Origin: an uncultured Poribacteria bacterium
GTDB taxonomy: Bacteria; Poribacteria; WGA-4E; WGA-3G
Assembly (NCBI GenBank): GCA_958296135.2
Contig: CATQHZ020000001.1
Coordinates: forward strand, 4,800,001-4,864,000
DNA length: 64,000 nucleotides
Direction: 5' to 3'
Shown: positions 3,499 to 34,296 of the stretch, piece after piece
How positions within the stretch are numbered: the stretch's first letter is position 1
Layout: each line of letters starts with the position of its first letter
The notes under the pieces: model-generated
What the model was told of the DNA's origin: nothing
Seen by the model: the letters and a program-made list of their open reading frames with translations, nothing else
Databases searched by the model: none
Translations under genes and position numbers: made by a program

Positions 3499-3912
3499 TC
3501 AGAGTTGGTATTCCGTGCGTTCGCCGCCATGTGCCGGATTATGGATAAGCCCCTCTCTCACATTCACATCCAGATCTAACAGTTCCATCACCATATGCCC
3601 AACAAGCGCAGGAACGTTGTCCGGCAAACTGCTTACCTCTATGATGCCTTTCCGCGATAGCACGGTAAACTGGACAGGCGAATAAAGCGTCCGAGTCACA
3701 ATGCCGTTTGTCGTGTGGACCAGGGTGGTATCGGTAGGTGTCAAACCGAGACTGTCAATTATCGATTGCGGCAAAGAGAGCCGCGTCGCACCGGTATCAA
3801 CAATCGCGCCTTTGATAGTCACCTGCCGAACCTCTTCAGAACCAATAATGCCAACTTCAGCCAAAACCAGATCTTTCTGATTTGCGACGTGGATGGTGGT
3901 CCTGTGTTGCAT
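3499..3912 (-). CDS. Clan AA (retropepsin-like) aspartyl protease, copy 2
   Basis: IVDTGAT catalytic motif, ALVG..MELLDL C-terminal motif, GGAGGAG SD before ATG at 3912. Confidence 0.85.
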   Translation of the reverse strand: MQHRTTIHVANQKDLVLAEVGIIGSEEVRQVTIKGAIVDTGATRLSLPQSIIDSLGLTPTDTTLVHTTNGIVTRTLYSPVQFTVLSRKGIIEVSSLPDNVPALVGHMVMELLDLDVNVREGLIHNPAHGGERTEYQL

Positions 3913-3937
3913 CGTTTTATCTCCTCCAAAGATGTCA

Positions 3938-4354
3938 TCAGAGTTGGTATTCCGTGCGTTCGCCGCCATGCGCGGGATTATGGATAAGCCCCTCTCTCAC
4001 ATTCACATCCAGATCTAACAGTTCCATCACCATGTGTCCCACAAGCGCAGGAACGTTGTCCGGCAAACTGCTTACCTCTATGATGCCTTTCCGCGATAGC
4101 ACGGTAAACTGGACAGGCGAATAAAGCGTCCGAGTCACAATGCCGTTTGTCGTGTGGACCAGGGTGGTATCAGTAGGTGTCAAACCGAGACTGTCAATTA
4201 TCGATTGCGGCAAAGAGAGCCGCGTCGCACCGGTATCGACAATCGCGCCTTTGATAGTCACCTGCCGAACCTCTTCAGAGCCAATAATGCCGAGTTCTAC
4301 CGCAACCAGATCTTTCTGATTTGCGACGTGGATGGTGGTTCTATGTTGCATCAT
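3938..4354 (-). CDS. Clan AA aspartyl protease, copy 1
   Basis: Same motifs; near-identical 439-bp-period tandem duplicate; AAAGGAG SD. Confidence 0.85.
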   Translation of the reverse strand: MMQHRTTIHVANQKDLVAVELGIIGSEEVRQVTIKGAIVDTGATRLSLPQSIIDSLGLTPTDTTLVHTTNGIVTRTLYSPVQFTVLSRKGIIEVSSLPDNVPALVGHMVMELLDLDVNVREGLIHNPAHGGERTEYQL

Positions 4355-4557
4355 TTTATCTCCTTTCAAACGGATAAGAGTCCGGCGCGCTGCCATCACC
4401 GTCCCGGACTCACGTAGTAACGAGGAGCTGTCCCTCGCAATGCCGAGGTAGAGCCCGTCAGAATGTTCATCTGAGCCCTACCTCGCCTCGTTTGAACGCA
4501 ACCGAACGGAAACGACAGCGCGAGAAACAAAACGGTTCCGCCGGGCAGACTGCGCGC

Positions 4558-5946
4558 CTATTTCCCAGACTTCCCGCCTCGCTTCTGCACGCGCAGGAAG
4601 GCCGGAATATCCCAGTCCGTCTCGCCACGTCCGCTGCTAGTCCCGGTGGCGGCAGGTTGCTGCGCGGGTGCCGGTCTCCGTGCCTGTCTCGCAGGTGGTT
4701 TTTCCGCCGGTGGCTGCTGCGCCGGCGCGGCAGGCGCGCCGGCGGCAGGGAACCCAGCTGCAGAACGGCCCGGGCGCGTTCGGCCCTGGGGTGCCGCGCT
4801 CGTACGGGAACCACCCAGATGCTGCCCAGGCAGCGGTGCCCGGCGTTCCGGGTAAGCCTCCTGTTCATTGTACTGCCTCGGTGCCACCCGCGGATCGACC
4901 CCGGATGCGCGCAAATCCTCTGTATCAAACCCTGTCGCAATGACGGTGACAAGCACCTCATCGCCGAGCTCCAAACTGTCTTTGTAGACAAGCCCGAAGA
5001 TAATCTGCGCATCGGTAGCCGCATCTTGGATTACCTGCATCGCCTCATCCAATTCGTGCATCATGAAATCGGGCGGTGAGGTGATGTTGACAATCATGCC
5101 ATAGGCACCGTTGATGTCAGTTTCCTCAAGAAGCGGCGAAGAAATTGCCTGTTGGGCAGCGGCTTGCGCACGGTTATCGCCCGTGGCGCGCCCCATGCCC
5201 ATCAGCGCACTGCCTGCTTCACGCATGATAGACTCCACATCGGCGAAGTCAACGTTAATCTCACCCGCCTCCGTAATAATATCCGAGATACTCTGAACGC
5301 CGTGGAGCAAAATCTCGTCTCCAACGCGGAGCGCCTCCTGAATCGGCAGTTTTCTGTCCATCGCATCCATCAAGCGTTGGTTCGGAACGACGATGACAGA
5401 ATCGGCGGATGCACGAAGCTCCTCAAGACCGGTTTCGGCTGCCTCGGCGCGCCGCATCCCCTCAAAATTGAAAGGACGGGTAACAACACCGATAGTGAGT
5501 GCCCCGCGTTCGCGCGCAAGCGATGCAATGAGCGGCGCTGCCCCGGTGCCAGTACCGCCGCCCATGCCAGCGGTGACGAACACCATGTTCGCATCCTCAA
5601 CAATCTTTTGCAGATGCTCCCGGTCTTCTTCCGCCGCTTTTCGGCCAACTTCGGGATTCGCACCGGCACCAAGGCCGTTAGTGGTGTTAATCCCAATCTG
5701 GAGTTGTGTCGCGCCATGGCACGTTTTCAACGCTTGATGGTCGGTGTTCACCGCGTAGAATTCGATGCCGGCTAATCCTGCTTCAATCATCCGTTTGACA
5801 GCGTTGCCACCAGCACCGCCGACACCGATGACCTTAATTTTCGCCCGCAGATCTCCAAATTCTTCTTGTTCAAATTCAATCATGTCTGGTTTCGGTTGCG
5901 CTTGCACTACAACCTCATTCCTCCTATTTTTTCCCGATGATACCAA
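4558..5946 (-). CDS. ftsZ: Cell division protein FtsZ (exact start uncertain)
   Basis: GVGGAGGNAV, GMGGGTGTG tubulin signature, INVDFADV, C-terminal WDIPAFLR. Confidence 0.98.
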   Translation of the reverse strand: MVSSGKNRRNEVVVQAQPKPDMIEFEQEEFGDLRAKIKVIGVGGAGGNAVKRMIEAGLAGIEFYAVNTDHQALKTCHGATQLQIGINTTNGLGAGANPEVGRKAAEEDREHLQKIVEDANMVFVTAGMGGGTGTGAAPLIASLARERGALTIGVVTRPFNFEGMRRAEAAETGLEELRASADSVIVVPNQRLMDAMDRKLPIQEALRVGDEILLHGVQSISDIITEAGEINVDFADVESIMREAGSALMGMGRATGDNRAQAAAQQAISSPLLEETDINGAYGMIVNITSPPDFMMHELDEAMQVIQDAATDAQIIFGLVYKDSLELGDEVLVTVIATGFDTEDLRASGVDPRVAPRQYNEQEAYPERRAPLPGQHLGGSRTSAAPQGRTRPGRSAAGFPAAGAPAAPAQQPPAEKPPARQARRPAPAQQPAATGTSSGRGETDWDIPAFLRVQKRGGKSGK

Positions 5947-6103
5947 ATCAATTCACGCTAATTCAGGCTCGTCCGAACCCGAAAGGTCAAAATCAGGGAA
6001 TCTGGTTTCCCTACAGAGATGAGACAAATCAACGTTATTTGGTATTATAGACTCGATTTGACTGCACCTATTGGACATCATAACACTGCATTGCGATCGA
6101 AAC

Positions 6104-6380
6104 AAAAACGGCCCATTCAACCGTAGCGCGAGGGCCGTCACGGTCACGCCTACAGAAAACGTGCGTGTGTCGCCCCGCGTAAACACGGTCACGTCTACAG
6201 AAAATGTGCGTGTGTCGCCCCGCGTAAACACGCTACCTTACTTACTTTAACTTTGTCCTCTCTGCAGCCTCGCTGCAGAGATGCCCACTGTCCCTCGCGA
6301 ATCGCTAACAAAAACGGCCCATTCAACCGTAGCGCGAGGGCCCGGCGATCGCGAATCGCCGAGGGTTCCCCTCGCGATCG
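6104..6380. repeat. REP-like palindromes with nested 45-bp tandem repeat and hairpins
   Basis: aaaacggcccattcaaccgtagcgcgagggcc occurs twice; 45-bp unit at 6139-6183 and 6184-6228; ctctgcagcctcgctgcagag hairpin. Confidence 0.8.
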
Positions 6381-6393
6381 CTCGACCGACATC

Positions 6394-6576
6394 TTACAGC
6401 GCGCTGTTACGTTTCTCGGCAGGGTTGGGTTCGGTGAAGTCTTCGCCGGCGGCTTCCGCTGCCTTCCGACGTGCTTCCCACTCAACCCACTCGCGGTTCG
6501 CAAGCTCTCTGCCGAGGGCCTCGCGCATCCGCTGACGCTTCTCAATCCCCTCGCGGACTAAATTATACAAAATCAT
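6394..6576 (-). CDS. Stand-alone C-terminal module (60 aa) of the 6881-7339 membrane protein
   Basis: GGAGG SD then ATG (MILYNLVREG...WVEWEARRKAAEAAGEDFTEPNP). Confidence 0.65.
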   Translation of the reverse strand: MILYNLVREGIEKRQRMREALGRELANREWVEWEARRKAAEAAGEDFTEPNPAEKRNSAL

Positions 6577-6632
6577 GGGAACCTCCACTACTGCAAAGAA
6601 AAGATAGGGAGCGCGATGCGGTGCCGTGCACC

Positions 6633-6824
6633 TCATGCGTCTTGTGACGTACCATTGCGTTTCTCGGCAGGGTTGGGTTCGGTGAAGTCTTCGCCGGCGG
6701 CTTCCGCTGCCTTCCGACGTGCTTCCCACTCAACCCACTCACGCCGCTCAAGCTCTCTGCCGAGGGCCTCGCGCATCCGCTGACGCTTCTCAATCTGCTC
6801 TTGGACTAAACCATACAAAATCAT
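6633..6824 (-). CDS. Stand-alone C-terminal module (63 aa), variant
   Basis: GGAGG SD then ATG (MILYGLVQEQ...); 248-bp-period repeat. Confidence 0.65.
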   Translation of the reverse strand: MILYGLVQEQIEKRQRMREALGRELERREWVEWEARRKAAEAAGEDFTEPNPAEKRNGTSQDA

Positions 6825-6880
6825 GGGAACCTCCACTACTGCAAAGAAAAGATAGGGAGCGCGATGCGGTGCCGTGCACC

Positions 6881-7339
6881 TCATGCGTCTTGTGACGTGC
6901 CATTGCGTTTCTCGGCAGGGTTGGGTTCAGTGAAGTCTTCGCCGGCGGCTTCCGCTGCCTTCCGACGTGCTTCCCACTCAACCCACTCGCGGTTCGCAAG
7001 CTCTCTGCCGAGGGCCTCGCCGCGCGCCTCGCGCATCCGCTGACGCTTCTCAATCCCCTCGCGGACTAAATTATACAAAATCATGGGAACCTCCACTCCT
7101 AAAAATAAAATCAGAACGGGAATAGTTATCGCCGTCGGAATACACCCCGTGGTATCAACGACAATTGCACGCACCGTCTCATAACCAGCCCAGCCTTTTG
7201 ACAGATGATAGGCAATTGCCATACCACCATAAACCAAGACAAGGACACAAAAGATGAGTAGCGCGATACCTACCCACCCCTGTCGGACACCTAGAAATTG
7301 CACCCGATCTCTCTCTTTCTGCTGTTCATCTTTCTTCAT
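6881..7339 (-). CDS. Membrane protein (2 predicted TM segments) with C-terminal WxxW..RR..GEDFTEP module and internal start at 7084
   Basis: Hydrophobic stretches GWVGIALLIFCVLVLVYGG and AITIPVLILFLG; internal AGGAGTGGAGG SD immediately before the in-frame ATG at 7084. Confidence 0.75.
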   Translation of the reverse strand: MKKDEQQKERDRVQFLGVRQGWVGIALLIFCVLVLVYGGMAIAYHLSKGWAGYETVRAIVVDTTGCIPTAITIPVLILFLGVEVPMILYNLVREGIEKRQRMREARGEALGRELANREWVEWEARRKAAEAAGEDFTEPNPAEKRNGTSQDA

Positions 7340-7376
7340 GCGCCGCTTCCTTCCCCCCAAATGGAGACACAATTGC

Positions 7377-7405
7377 ATTTTAACACACATCGGCATGGAT
7401 GTCAA
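7377..7405 (-). promoter_or_regulatory. sigma70 promoter for the inserted membrane-protein gene
   Basis: TTGACA-17bp-TAAAAT. Confidence 0.7.
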
Positions 7406-7462
7406 GTTTTTTTCAGAATGGGGAGGCGCGCGGTGACAACGCGAAACTCCTGGGCAGCGCGC

Positions 7463-8692
7463 CTAATAGCCGAACCACTCTTTGAATCGCTGCATCAGCG
7501 CACCAAGGCCACTCGGCCGGTGCCGTGAGGACTCTTCAAGTTCCTGAAGGCGGAGCGCGCTACCGTAAAGTACCAGGCCAATACCGGTTGCATACATGGG
7601 ATGATTCACCCGATCGGTCAGCCCCTTCAGTTCCTTCGGGTAGCCTACCTGCACGCGGAGCGGGATAATCTGTTCAGCGAGCTCGGTTAAGCCATCCATT
7701 AGCGATGTACCGCCGGTCAGCATCAACCCGGCGGGGAGTTGCATATCGCCAAGTTCGTAGGCGAGTGCCTCTAAAATTTCTACCATCCGATACTCAATGA
7801 TTTGCGCCAGATCGACTTTATCGATGAACCGCGGCCGATTCGCACCTACCACAGTCGGAATCGGCTCCGAATTCTCCGGGCCAACCAACGCTGTCCATGC
7901 GCAGCCGCGGTGCAGTTTGAGTTCCTCTGCTTCGGGGAGCGTCACCTTTAAATACTGCGCGATATCGTTGGTGACATGCTGCCCGCCCACCGGCAAGACA
8001 GCGGTGTGTTGAATGGCATCCTCTTTGTAAACGATGATTTCGGTGGTGCCGTCCCCGATATCGGCCAGAGCAATCCCTACCTCGCGTTCGTCTTGTGATA
8101 TGACTGCTTCTGTCGATGCCAATGGTGAAGCAACCAGTGTCTCCACATGTGTCAACCCTGCCTTCTCAATGCTGTTCAGCAAGTTCTGTGTTGCCGTTAC
8201 GCCCCCCGTGATGATATAGGCGTAAGCCTCCAGCCGCGCGCCCGACATGCCAACAGGCTCTTTGATGCGATTCTGCGTATCTACGACAAAATTCTGCTCA
8301 ATGACATGCAGAATGTCGCGGCCAGCAGGGATGGAAACGGCGCGCGCGGCCGTCATCGCACGTGCCACATCTGCCTGCGAAATCTCCGGCACACTCGCCA
8401 CGGCGACAACACCGTGCGAGGTTTGCCCAACAAGATGGTCTCCCGAGATGCCGACACACGCGGACTCTATCTTTACGCCTGCCATCAGTTCAGCATCCGA
8501 GATGGCCTTGCGGATAGCTTCCGCCGTTTGAGAGATGTCAACGACACTCCCGCGGCGCACGCCTTCGGAGCGCGCATGGCCAACGCCGATAATCTCAACA
8601 CCTTCCCGCTGCCCCTGCCATGCGTTTCCGACGACGACAGAAATTTTGCTTGAGCCGATATCTAGGCCCGCGATAATACTTTCCTTAGCCAT
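7463..8692 (-). CDS. ftsA: Cell division protein FtsA
   Basis: GLDIGSSKI, DIGDGTT, GGQHVTNDIA, LTGGTS actin-like motifs. Confidence 0.97.
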   Translation of the reverse strand: MAKESIIAGLDIGSSKISVVVGNAWQGQREGVEIIGVGHARSEGVRRGSVVDISQTAEAIRKAISDAELMAGVKIESACVGISGDHLVGQTSHGVVAVASVPEISQADVARAMTAARAVSIPAGRDILHVIEQNFVVDTQNRIKEPVGMSGARLEAYAYIITGGVTATQNLLNSIEKAGLTHVETLVASPLASTEAVISQDEREVGIALADIGDGTTEIIVYKEDAIQHTAVLPVGGQHVTNDIAQYLKVTLPEAEELKLHRGCAWTALVGPENSEPIPTVVGANRPRFIDKVDLAQIIEYRMVEILEALAYELGDMQLPAGLMLTGGTSLMDGLTELAEQIIPLRVQVGYPKELKGLTDRVNHPMYATGIGLVLYGSALRLQELEESSRHRPSGLGALMQRFKEWFGY

Positions 8693-33740: not shown

Positions 33741-33770
33741 TTGACATCTGCTCAGAATTTATGATAAAAT
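33741..33770 (+). promoter_or_regulatory. sigma70 promoter
   Basis: TTGACA-18bp-TAAAAT with extended TG. Confidence 0.55.
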
Positions 33771-33831
33771 GTTGACAACAGATAGAAGATTCCCTAACAT
33801 TTGTGGGTTACTTAAAAAAAGGACTATCTTC

Positions 33832-34296
33832 ATGCCAGCAGAACGTCAATCGCTAATTAGTGTCAAAGACGTAGAAACCGCTATCGTTCATTTCGGAATA
33901 ATGGAGTCGATTTATCCCTTTCTTGTCATCGGATACGTTCTCATAAAAGGCGGGCACACGCCGCTTGAGACGCTGTTCCTCATTCTGAGGCATTTTCCGA
34001 CAGGCATGCAAATTGGGATAGGGCTCATCATCTTCAAGGAGGCAGTAGACATCATGCTATTCAGACGTTGGAGTGAAGCCAAAGCCGAATTTGCCGCACG
34101 CATCGAACAAGCAAAAACCGAAGGCAAAGCCGAAGGCAAAGCTGAAGGCAAAGCTGAAGGCAAAGCTGAAGGCAAAGCTGAAGGCAAAGCTGAAGGCGTT
34201 GCGGAACGGGACCGGCAGTGGGCGGCGTGGAATAACCGTCGCACAGCAGCGGAAGCGAAGGGCGAACCGTTTAACGAACCGCCACCGCATCCATAA
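33832..34296 (+). CDS. Membrane protein with (EGKA)n repeat and C-terminal WAAWNNRR..GEPFNEPPP module; internal start at 34054
   Basis: Hydrophobic N-terminus; internal AAGGAGG (34036-34042) before in-frame ATG; motif shared with 9-347 and 6394-7339. Confidence 0.75.
   Translation: MPAERQSLISVKDVETAIVHFGIMESIYPFLVIGYVLIKGGHTPLETLFLILRHFPTGMQIGIGLIIFKEAVDIMLFRRWSEAKAEFAARIEQAKTEGKAEGKAEGKAEGKAEGKAEGKAEGVAERDRQWAAWNNRRTAAEAKGEPFNEPPPHP
34120..34197 (+). repeat. 12-bp in-frame tandem repeat (gaaggcaaagcY) x6.5
   Basis: Encodes EGKA x6 + EG. Confidence 0.95.

Follow-up and report, generated by a model that had tools for sequence, protein, structure and literature searches.

A two-transmembrane protein gene with a candidate internal start and tandem module-only copies between ftsA and ftsZ of an uncultured Poribacteria bacterium

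The stretch analysed here, called the window, comprises 64,000 nucleotides of an uncultured Poribacteria genome (GenBank assembly GCA_958296135.2, contig CATQHZ020000001.1, positions 4,800,001 to 4,864,000), and carries an array of one long and two small open reading frames (ORFs) between the genes ftsA and ftsZ. Instead of adjoining each other, ftsA (7463-8692, minus strand; Pfam FtsA, 4.4e-42), the upstream neighbour of the array, and ftsZ (4558-5946, minus strand; Tubulin, 6.6e-49; start codon inside the ORF not fixed), its downstream neighbour, are separated by a gap of ~1.5 kb on the minus strand. This gap holds, in order, a promoter, a 152-amino-acid ORF, two small ORFs, a terminator-like hairpin and a patchwork of short repeats found genome-wide. 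The putative sigma-70-like promoter (TTGACA-17-TAAAAT with TG; 7405-7377, minus strand) is a consensus match only, at 11 of 12 positions, and a promoter scan of the region returned 3 sites compared with 0.8 +/- 0.9 in shuffled sequence. The hairpin with its T run (6330-6314, minus strand) is weakly supported, since a terminator scan gave 2 sites where 2.2 are expected. It lies inside a 36-nucleotide element that has 53 BLAST matches in the genome, many of them partial, and only the two copies in the window are full-length and identical. Together, the promoter, the long ORF, the two small ORFs and the hairpin appear to form a transcription unit of their own. The filler from the array towards ftsZ (6100-6400) consists of interspersed repeats, namely a 45-nucleotide unit (121 matches), the 36-nucleotide unit and a 168-nucleotide stretch (507 partial matches). 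A search of Rfam with positions 5800-7600 gave nothing beyond one chance microRNA match (E = 0.41).

The long ORF (L; 6881-7339, minus strand) is predicted from the ORF list, hydrophobicity and AlphaFold2 to encode a hairpin protein with two transmembrane (TM) segments. Residues 1-22 form a charged tail, and hydrophobic segments (KD19 of at least 1.6) are centred on residues 24-38 and 67-84. The AlphaFold2 model of L, calculated from a 23-sequence alignment (predicted local distance difference test, pLDDT, of 78), has helices at residues 20-47 and 67-131 followed by an extended tail. In this model the second TM helix (TM2) continues directly into a charged helix that ends at residue 131, and Met86 is positioned where TM2 exits the membrane. 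The C-terminal part carries the motif W-x2-W-x2-RR-x2-A-x3-G-x2-F-x-EP-x-P. Lysine and arginine residues number 6 in the N-terminal tail, 2 in the loop and 13 in the C-terminal part, and by the positive-inside rule both ends of L would be cytoplasmic. No family match for L was obtained from Pfam, NCBIfam, PADLOC or PHROGs, with PHROGs searched for window proteins at E <= 0.1. Foldseek found no match in the PDB below E = 1 for either the L model or the model of its C-terminal module, which has one long helix and one short helix. Sequence searches of the PDB with the family and module alignments gave nothing significant (0 matches at E <= 10 for the module), and a protein Atlas search returned unnamed clusters only.

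At the boundary between the membrane hairpin and the module, the L gene contains the Shine-Dalgarno (SD)-like element GGAGTGGAGG (GGAGG at 7094-7090), which is followed after 5 nucleotides by the in-frame ATG of Met86 (7084-7082); element and codon together occupy 7082-7099 on the minus strand. If Met86 serves as a start, these sequence signals would define a candidate in-gene frame of 67 amino acids beginning MILYNLVREG (S; 6881-7084, minus strand). The same boundary adjoins one end of a tandem DNA repeat (6410-7097, minus strand; a 248-nucleotide unit x 2.7, with 91% matches in Tandem Repeats Finder), whose unit contains the module, its stop codon and a spacer of ~60 nucleotides. In an alignment of the three copies, the unit runs from ~30 nucleotides before the internal ATG to ~60 nucleotides beyond the stop. 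Because it spans both the 3' part of L and non-coding spacer, the array reflects DNA duplication and not a within-protein repeat.

The two downstream units hold anchor-less module genes, S copy 2 (63 amino acids; 6633-6824, minus strand) and S copy 3 (60 amino acids; 6394-6576, minus strand). Copy 2 carries the variant residues GLVQEQ/ERR, and copy 3 has a changed C-terminal tail (..RNSAL). The arrangement of GGAGG, 5 nucleotides and ATG is present in each of the three copies, and both small ORFs start with MILY. An alternative start that would add 20 residues is available to both small ORFs, where an ATG overlaps the preceding stop codon as ATGA; for copy 2 this start at 6884 yields an 83-amino-acid ORF (6633-6884). 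The copies are 92-96% identical pairwise, non-coding spacer included. Apart from a single repeat unit, one synonymous substitution and its final few residues, copy 3 matches the in-gene module, and copy 2 differs from it by 6 residues and the same single repeat unit, so that the sole indel between L and the window copies is one 12-nucleotide unit. Logan contigs connect 6657 back to 6410 in 3 of 4 runs from one sample, at ~2x the flank depth, which fits a tandem array, although this sample is probably the source sample and its support for the assembly is therefore not independent; positions 6702-7025 were covered by no contig. An earlier sequence-only reading of the window had described much of this anatomy, and our analyses bear it out: a gene with its own promoter between ftsA and ftsZ, two TM segments followed by a charged helical module, a strong SD with an in-frame ATG at 7084 where the two meet, two further module-only copies that begin just upstream of the same SD and ATG, and a middle copy with GLVQEQ/ERR where the in-gene module has NLVREG/ANR.

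The small tail ORFs look like real genes when they are compared with their relatives. In the sister species (locus L009) the array reads ftsA, L, S, S, ftsZ, and the start codon of each S shares an ATGA with the stop codon of the ORF before it, which is a usual sign of, and thus a pointer to, translational coupling. The S copies are under coding constraint, with a ratio of nonsynonymous to synonymous divergence (dN/dS) between the window and the sister species of 0.12 for S2 (dS 0.98, dN 0.11) and 0.24 for S3. Moreover, the S2 copies of the two species share residues (GLV.EQ, ERR) that are absent from their own L genes. Across the family, the boundary Met codon is kept in 22 of the 22 N-terminally truncated copies examined, 13 of which begin at most 11 profile positions before it, and 12 of the top 150 representatives from an exhaustive profile search are short proteins whose residue 1 is the boundary Met. 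Partial copies at 4 loci in the source genome, and others elsewhere, are each nearest to their own upstream gene, which indicates independent origins. Stand-alone module genes are found repeatedly, in numerous genomes. Anchor-less module proteins are also encoded free-standing, far from any L gene, at 9-347 and 874-1212 of the window (both minus strand). These two and a third ORF outside the window (G000:C1:4797673-4798047) encode near-identical proteins of ~112 amino acids (MMMLHEWY...), each of which contains the C-terminal motif twice and has its first residue where the family has its conserved Met.

Two ideas about the copies were set aside. A rule that the downstream copy is one repeat unit shorter than its L held at 4 of 4 loci in the source genome, but the partial copy at locus L070 and S3 of the sister species have more repeats. 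An origin of the type produced by diversity-generating retroelements was also considered; the differences between copies are not adenine-specific, and no search for a reverse transcriptase was made.

The signals at Met86 were evaluated against the rest of the source genome, which has a standard anti-SD sequence and carries GGAGG 5-10 nucleotides before its gene starts. Internal in-frame ATGs with GGAGG 4-14 nucleotides upstream amount to 0.98% of 20,978 in this genome, and GGA is the first codon in only 6.6% of its Gly-Gly pairs. The anti-SD duplex predicted at Met86 (-11.2 kcal/mol) is reached by 0.25% of internal ATGs. For the 11 family members of this genome, pairing ranges from -6.8 to -13.1 kcal/mol compared with a mean of -2.9 for internal ATGs; 7 of the 11 rank within the top 1.1%, and none falls outside the top 8%. 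The SD-like motif is encoded by different residues across paralogs (GVE, WE, GG, EGG, KEA and LE). It is under constraint at the nucleotide level: of 17 conserved four-fold codons compared across 19 orthologues of two other genera, only the GGA codon forming GGAGG has an invariant third position. The GGAGG-ATG spacing in those two genera is 13 nucleotides. Such a spacing is likewise found at ftsA (L039-L058), which has GGAGG 12-13 nucleotides before its ATG in most of 18 genomes checked, a distance longer than the 5-10 nucleotides typical of the source genome. All 23 aligned family members have the boundary Met, and a Met occupies the same column in 75 of 110 longer representatives. Judging from these signals, Met86 is a likely, though still putative, internal start.

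The array belongs to an orphan family that is widespread in the phylum. An exhaustive HMMER profile search returned 1315 cluster representatives at E <= 1e-3, and family matches were found in 84 of 121 genomes of the phylum, with up to 26 per genome and 15-26 in each of the source genome and two related ones. The source names seen for family members all read 'hypothetical protein, Candidatus Poribacteria'. In the source genome, the plan of two TM segments plus module is found at no fewer than 11 places, and the window and its immediate surroundings contain two additional full-length members and three that lack the anchor. A full-length two-TM member at 33745-34293 (plus strand) carries seven AEGK repeats. 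Only ten columns of the 23-sequence alignment are invariant, comprising Met86, Gly111 and eight positions in W-x2-RR-x2-A-x3-G-x2-F-x-E-x2-P. Two scans of metagenome contigs, with a single protein and then with the alignment, found no relative, and a scan of genome contigs found only the sister locus. The literature search yielded no paper describing this family, and none reporting a gene that separates ftsA from ftsZ in Poribacteria.

The location of the array between the two cell-division genes reflects an insertion specific to the genus and is not a trait of the family. In 20 genomes of other genera, the region upstream of ftsZ contains ftsA in 17 cases and a family member in none; a member otherwise occupies this same place in the sister species only (G080, locus L009). 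A role for the family in cell division had been suggested by 2 of 11 own-genome members, which lie beside ftsA/ftsZ or minDE, and was ruled out as a family trait by the count of 0 of 20 in the other genomes. The remaining own-genome members include ones between the genes for a CcmA-like ATP-binding cassette (ABC) ATPase and CcmB, after minD-minE-minE, and beside lpxK, holA and nuoN. At the first of these sites (L008, G000:C1:1309001-1312408; 591-2991), a member and a partial copy separate the ABC ATPase gene from the CcmB permease gene, which normally form one transporter operon. At the second (L059, G000:C1:3662001-3666000; 570-2696), minD precedes two tandem MinE paralogs (85 and 82 amino acids; Pfam MinE, 1.8e-14 and 7.6e-14), and a two-TM member comes after these. 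Among 71 neighbouring ORFs in other genomes, the commonest products are FolD (7) and FIST (6), and one orthologous group holds a steady FolD/FIST context across species. PADLOC models matched mostly one neighbour each and at most 2, with single matches for a type I methyltransferase, DpdF, PsyrT, pAgo and mad2, and no clear defence-island context was seen among the 71 ORFs.

Two other features of the ftsZ surroundings were recorded. Just downstream of ftsZ lie tandem ORFs of 153-156 amino acids (3499-3969 and 3938-4399, both minus strand) with a weak Asp_protease_2 match (1.2e-5), and the sister genome has the same duplication of an aspartyl-protease-like ORF (L009, 7069-7976) with a period of 479. 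In many genomes of the same taxonomic family, a second FtsZ-like domain occurs inside open frames of ~1350-1440 amino acids (e.g., G098:C1:747217-748185).

Within the module, the charged helix contains four-residue repeats. The query protein, paralog B and 25 close homologues (27 proteins, 64-100% identity) range from 148 to 176 amino acids, and all of their lengths differ in steps of 4. The repeat units (EARG, EAIG, AEGK and others) begin 18 amino acids after Met86. At 4 of 4 loci in the source genome where L is accompanied by copies, the repeat number differs between L and its copies.

These features resemble those of the Rpn L/S systems. According to Zhong et al. (2023; PMC10327210), translation of RpnS begins at a start codon inside rpnL, and the first long helix of RpnS has four-residue repeats, each with one hydrophobic residue plus charged residues or Gly, located 8-20 amino acids after the initiating Met. 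The same paper reports that repeat number varies between strains and sets which S neutralises which L, that second S copies have arisen independently downstream of some rpn genes, and that this intragenic antitoxin is the first of its kind. Compared with this account, the family described here has a predicted in-frame SD and ATG inside the long gene, a strain-variable four-residue repeat helix whose start 18 amino acids after the Met falls within the Rpn range, and independently arisen downstream S copies. Genuine Rpn/DUF4351 loci are present in 74 of 121 Poribacteria genomes and were not found in the source genome or its sister. As a positive control, 20 such loci were fetched from the phylum (L079-L098), and in 7 of them a separate S ORF comes after the L ORF. 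The internal start of Poribacteria Rpn L genes is an in-frame GAGGAGGTGGAACAG-ATG, downstream S copies begin just before that SD, and some of the loci carry (AEGK)n of the same type as the repeats in the two-TM family.

Nevertheless, the family is not a member of the Rpn L/S group. Its N-terminal part (residues 1-90) is a predicted two-TM hairpin with no Pfam or NCBIfam match, in place of a PD-(D/E)XK nuclease, and its module is modelled as one long helix with a short helix and tail in place of the three-helix bundle of RpnS. An hhalign comparison of the module alignment with 18 Poribacteria RpnS sequences gave a probability of 6.4%, the module has no match to PF14261 (DUF4351), and the RpnAS structure 7TH0 was not found by Foldseek or by a PDB sequence search with the module. 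No enrichment near defence genes was seen around family loci (71 neighbouring ORFs; no formal enrichment test). A suspected resemblance of the P0113 C-terminus to DUF4351 was dropped after Pfam gave no confirmation at E <= 0.1. Given the lack of a nuclease, the low hhalign probability and the absence of an RpnAS match, the resemblance is one of locus construction and not of descent. The sequence-only reading had proposed a nuclease-free analogue of Rpn, which stands as regards the three shared anatomical traits and the missing nuclease and does not extend to homology with RpnS/DUF4351. Its further proposal that the tandem variants form an antidote repertoire is not supported, as the three window copies are too alike. 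What is new is the membrane hairpin that takes the place of the nuclease; the gene-within-gene L/S plan itself is already known.

Other systems make the C-terminal domain of a protein separately from an in-frame internal start, including SctQ/SctQ-C, CcmM58/M35 and the long and short forms of CheA, and in these the short product works with the full-length form. To our knowledge they lack tandem downstream copies and strain-variable four-residue repeats, and they differ from the present case in that its long form is a small anchor in the membrane. Class II holins that have a dual-start antiholin possess two TM helices, a highly charged cytoplasmic C-terminus and two products from one gene, and the topology of L fits this description. 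However, the alternative start here would remove both TM helices rather than add a few N-terminal residues, no PHROGs holin match was obtained, no endolysin occurs among the neighbours checked, which are cellular housekeeping genes, and the 15-26 family matches in the source and two related genomes are also unlike a holin.

The explanation that we favour, and to which we assign an even chance, is that the locus is an L/S gene-within-gene module: a member of an orphan multicopy family inserted between ftsA and ftsZ in this genus only. The data show the anatomy and how well it is conserved, together with constraint on S as coding sequence and on the SD-like element at the nucleotide level; translation from Met86, contact between L and S, and the function of L are what we infer. 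L would be a two-TM hairpin whose TM2 continues into a cytosolic helix with variable four-residue repeats, ending in a near-invariant docking motif. S would be the anchor-less cytosolic part. It would come from the two partial duplicates downstream, which both have a GGAGG-ATG of their own, and probably also from the SD and Met86 inside L. Because S shares its repeat helix and end motif with L, it may pair with the L stalk or compete with L for the same cytosolic partner. The level of S would then set how much membrane-bound L is active, and repeat number may tune which S fits which L. A predicted complex of L with S scored 0.10 (mark 0.32), which counts neither for nor against binding.

Several observations weigh against this explanation. 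The conservation of the internal SD and ATG across homologues, which the sequence-only reading had proposed to check, holds for the 23 aligned members, all with an SD-like element before the Met, but 35 of 110 wider-family representatives have no Met at that column. When the seven codons before the Met were synonymously recoded, the median p was 0.32 and 2 of 43 values were at <= 0.05; this test is weak because much of the SD-likeness is dictated by the residues G-G, G-V and E, and the G-G/G-V-E motif could also be kept for a protein-level reason. Nine of the 22 truncated copies retain TM2 or more, such that the duplication boundary is not fixed at the SD. Some S copies have a weak SD (S2 and S3 of L009, the L070 partial copy and L066), a few partial copies contain stops, and no shared partner gene was found among the neighbours checked. 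No RNA run containing the locus was found. Finally, gene conversion from L could maintain the S reading frames and make dN/dS look lower than it is. Part of this evidence would be expected if the extra copies were functionless by-products of a duplication-prone locus with internal 12-nucleotide repeats in a repeat-rich genome, kept open by gene conversion, with the Met and the G-G/G-V-E residues serving as structural features of the membrane boundary. The near identity of the window copies through the spacer, the clustering of copy 2 differences in patches such as gene conversion would leave, truncation points that range from profile position 39 to 84, the occasional stops, the weak recoding test and the presence of N-terminal fragments among the representatives (P0094, P0096, P0101 and P0122) all agree with such an origin. 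We nonetheless regard it as unlikely, given that S2 shares its lineage-specific residues with the sister S2 at dS near 1 and dN of 0.11, that the ATGA overlaps in the sister species point to translational coupling, that free-standing anchor-less module genes (9-347 and 874-1212) lie far from any L, and that the GGA third position is uniquely frozen. The copies might instead be untranslated recombination cassettes. Silent cassettes of the pilE/pilS type are promoterless, 5'-truncated copies with mosaic differences beside an expressed gene, and here such copies, downstream of L, would be donors (silent pilS or orphan C-terminal type) that alter the L tail in sequence or in its number of repeats. 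The array has this layout, and at each of the 4 own-genome loci L and its copies carry different numbers of repeats. The variable part is predicted to be cytoplasmic from the lysine and arginine counts (6/2/13) and not surface-exposed, so there is no evident immune or phage pressure on it. In addition, the copies keep an SD with ATG or ATGA overlaps, which donors do not need, they evolve at dN/dS of 0.12-0.24, and free-standing module genes fit poorly, making cassettes the most improbable of the readings considered.

A stronger version of the favoured L/S module would have L act as a membrane toxin or abortive-infection effector, for example a pore of oligomerized hairpins, with S as its antidote and repeat number setting L-S pairing as in Rpn L/S. 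The three hallmarks shared with Rpn as described in PMC10327210, the patchy, multicopy distribution of the family at lineage-specific positions, the identical layout of genuine Poribacteria Rpn systems, including (AEGK)n repeats, and the few neighbours that match defence models (type I methyltransferase, DpdF, PsyrT, pAgo and mad2, one each) are consistent with this possibility. In contrast, neither L nor S matches a toxin-like or defence family, the module shows no homology to RpnS, housekeeping genes make up most of the neighbours (FtsA/FtsZ, MinD-MinE, CcmA-like/CcmB, LpxK, HolA and NuoN in the source genome, and FolD and FIST elsewhere), and the stable FolD/FIST context of one orthologous group is unlike that of typical mobile toxin-antitoxin genes. 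We consider a toxin and antidote unlikely because nothing yet speaks to toxicity or defence. Only tentatively, and with the balance against it, can the family be viewed as a second, unrelated one built on the Rpn L/S plan, in which a membrane effector would be checked by an intragenic S, with a four-residue-repeat 'length code' that would match each S to its L and with spare S genes of other lengths downstream.

The L/S module described here offers a first working model for at least 825 'hypothetical proteins' of sponge-symbiont genomes. An unrelated orphan family displays the three structural signatures of Rpn in a phylum that also holds genuine Rpn systems, permitting side-by-side comparison. 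The combination of a conserved internal SD and Met, a strain-variable four-residue repeat helix and downstream partial copies can serve as a search rule for intragenic small proteins, which are otherwise hard to find. The genes are compact and clonable (152 amino acids for L, 60-63 for S), and thus provide a test case for whether repeat length encodes pairing specificity generally and whether a bare membrane hairpin can be a regulated effector. If the family is indeed a second one on the Rpn plan, then the L/S arrangement with dodecamer-repeat specificity would be a general, convergent design for self-inhibited effectors, and its expansion in sponge symbionts would point to a large and so far unrecognised set of modules that act on membranes in defence or conflict.

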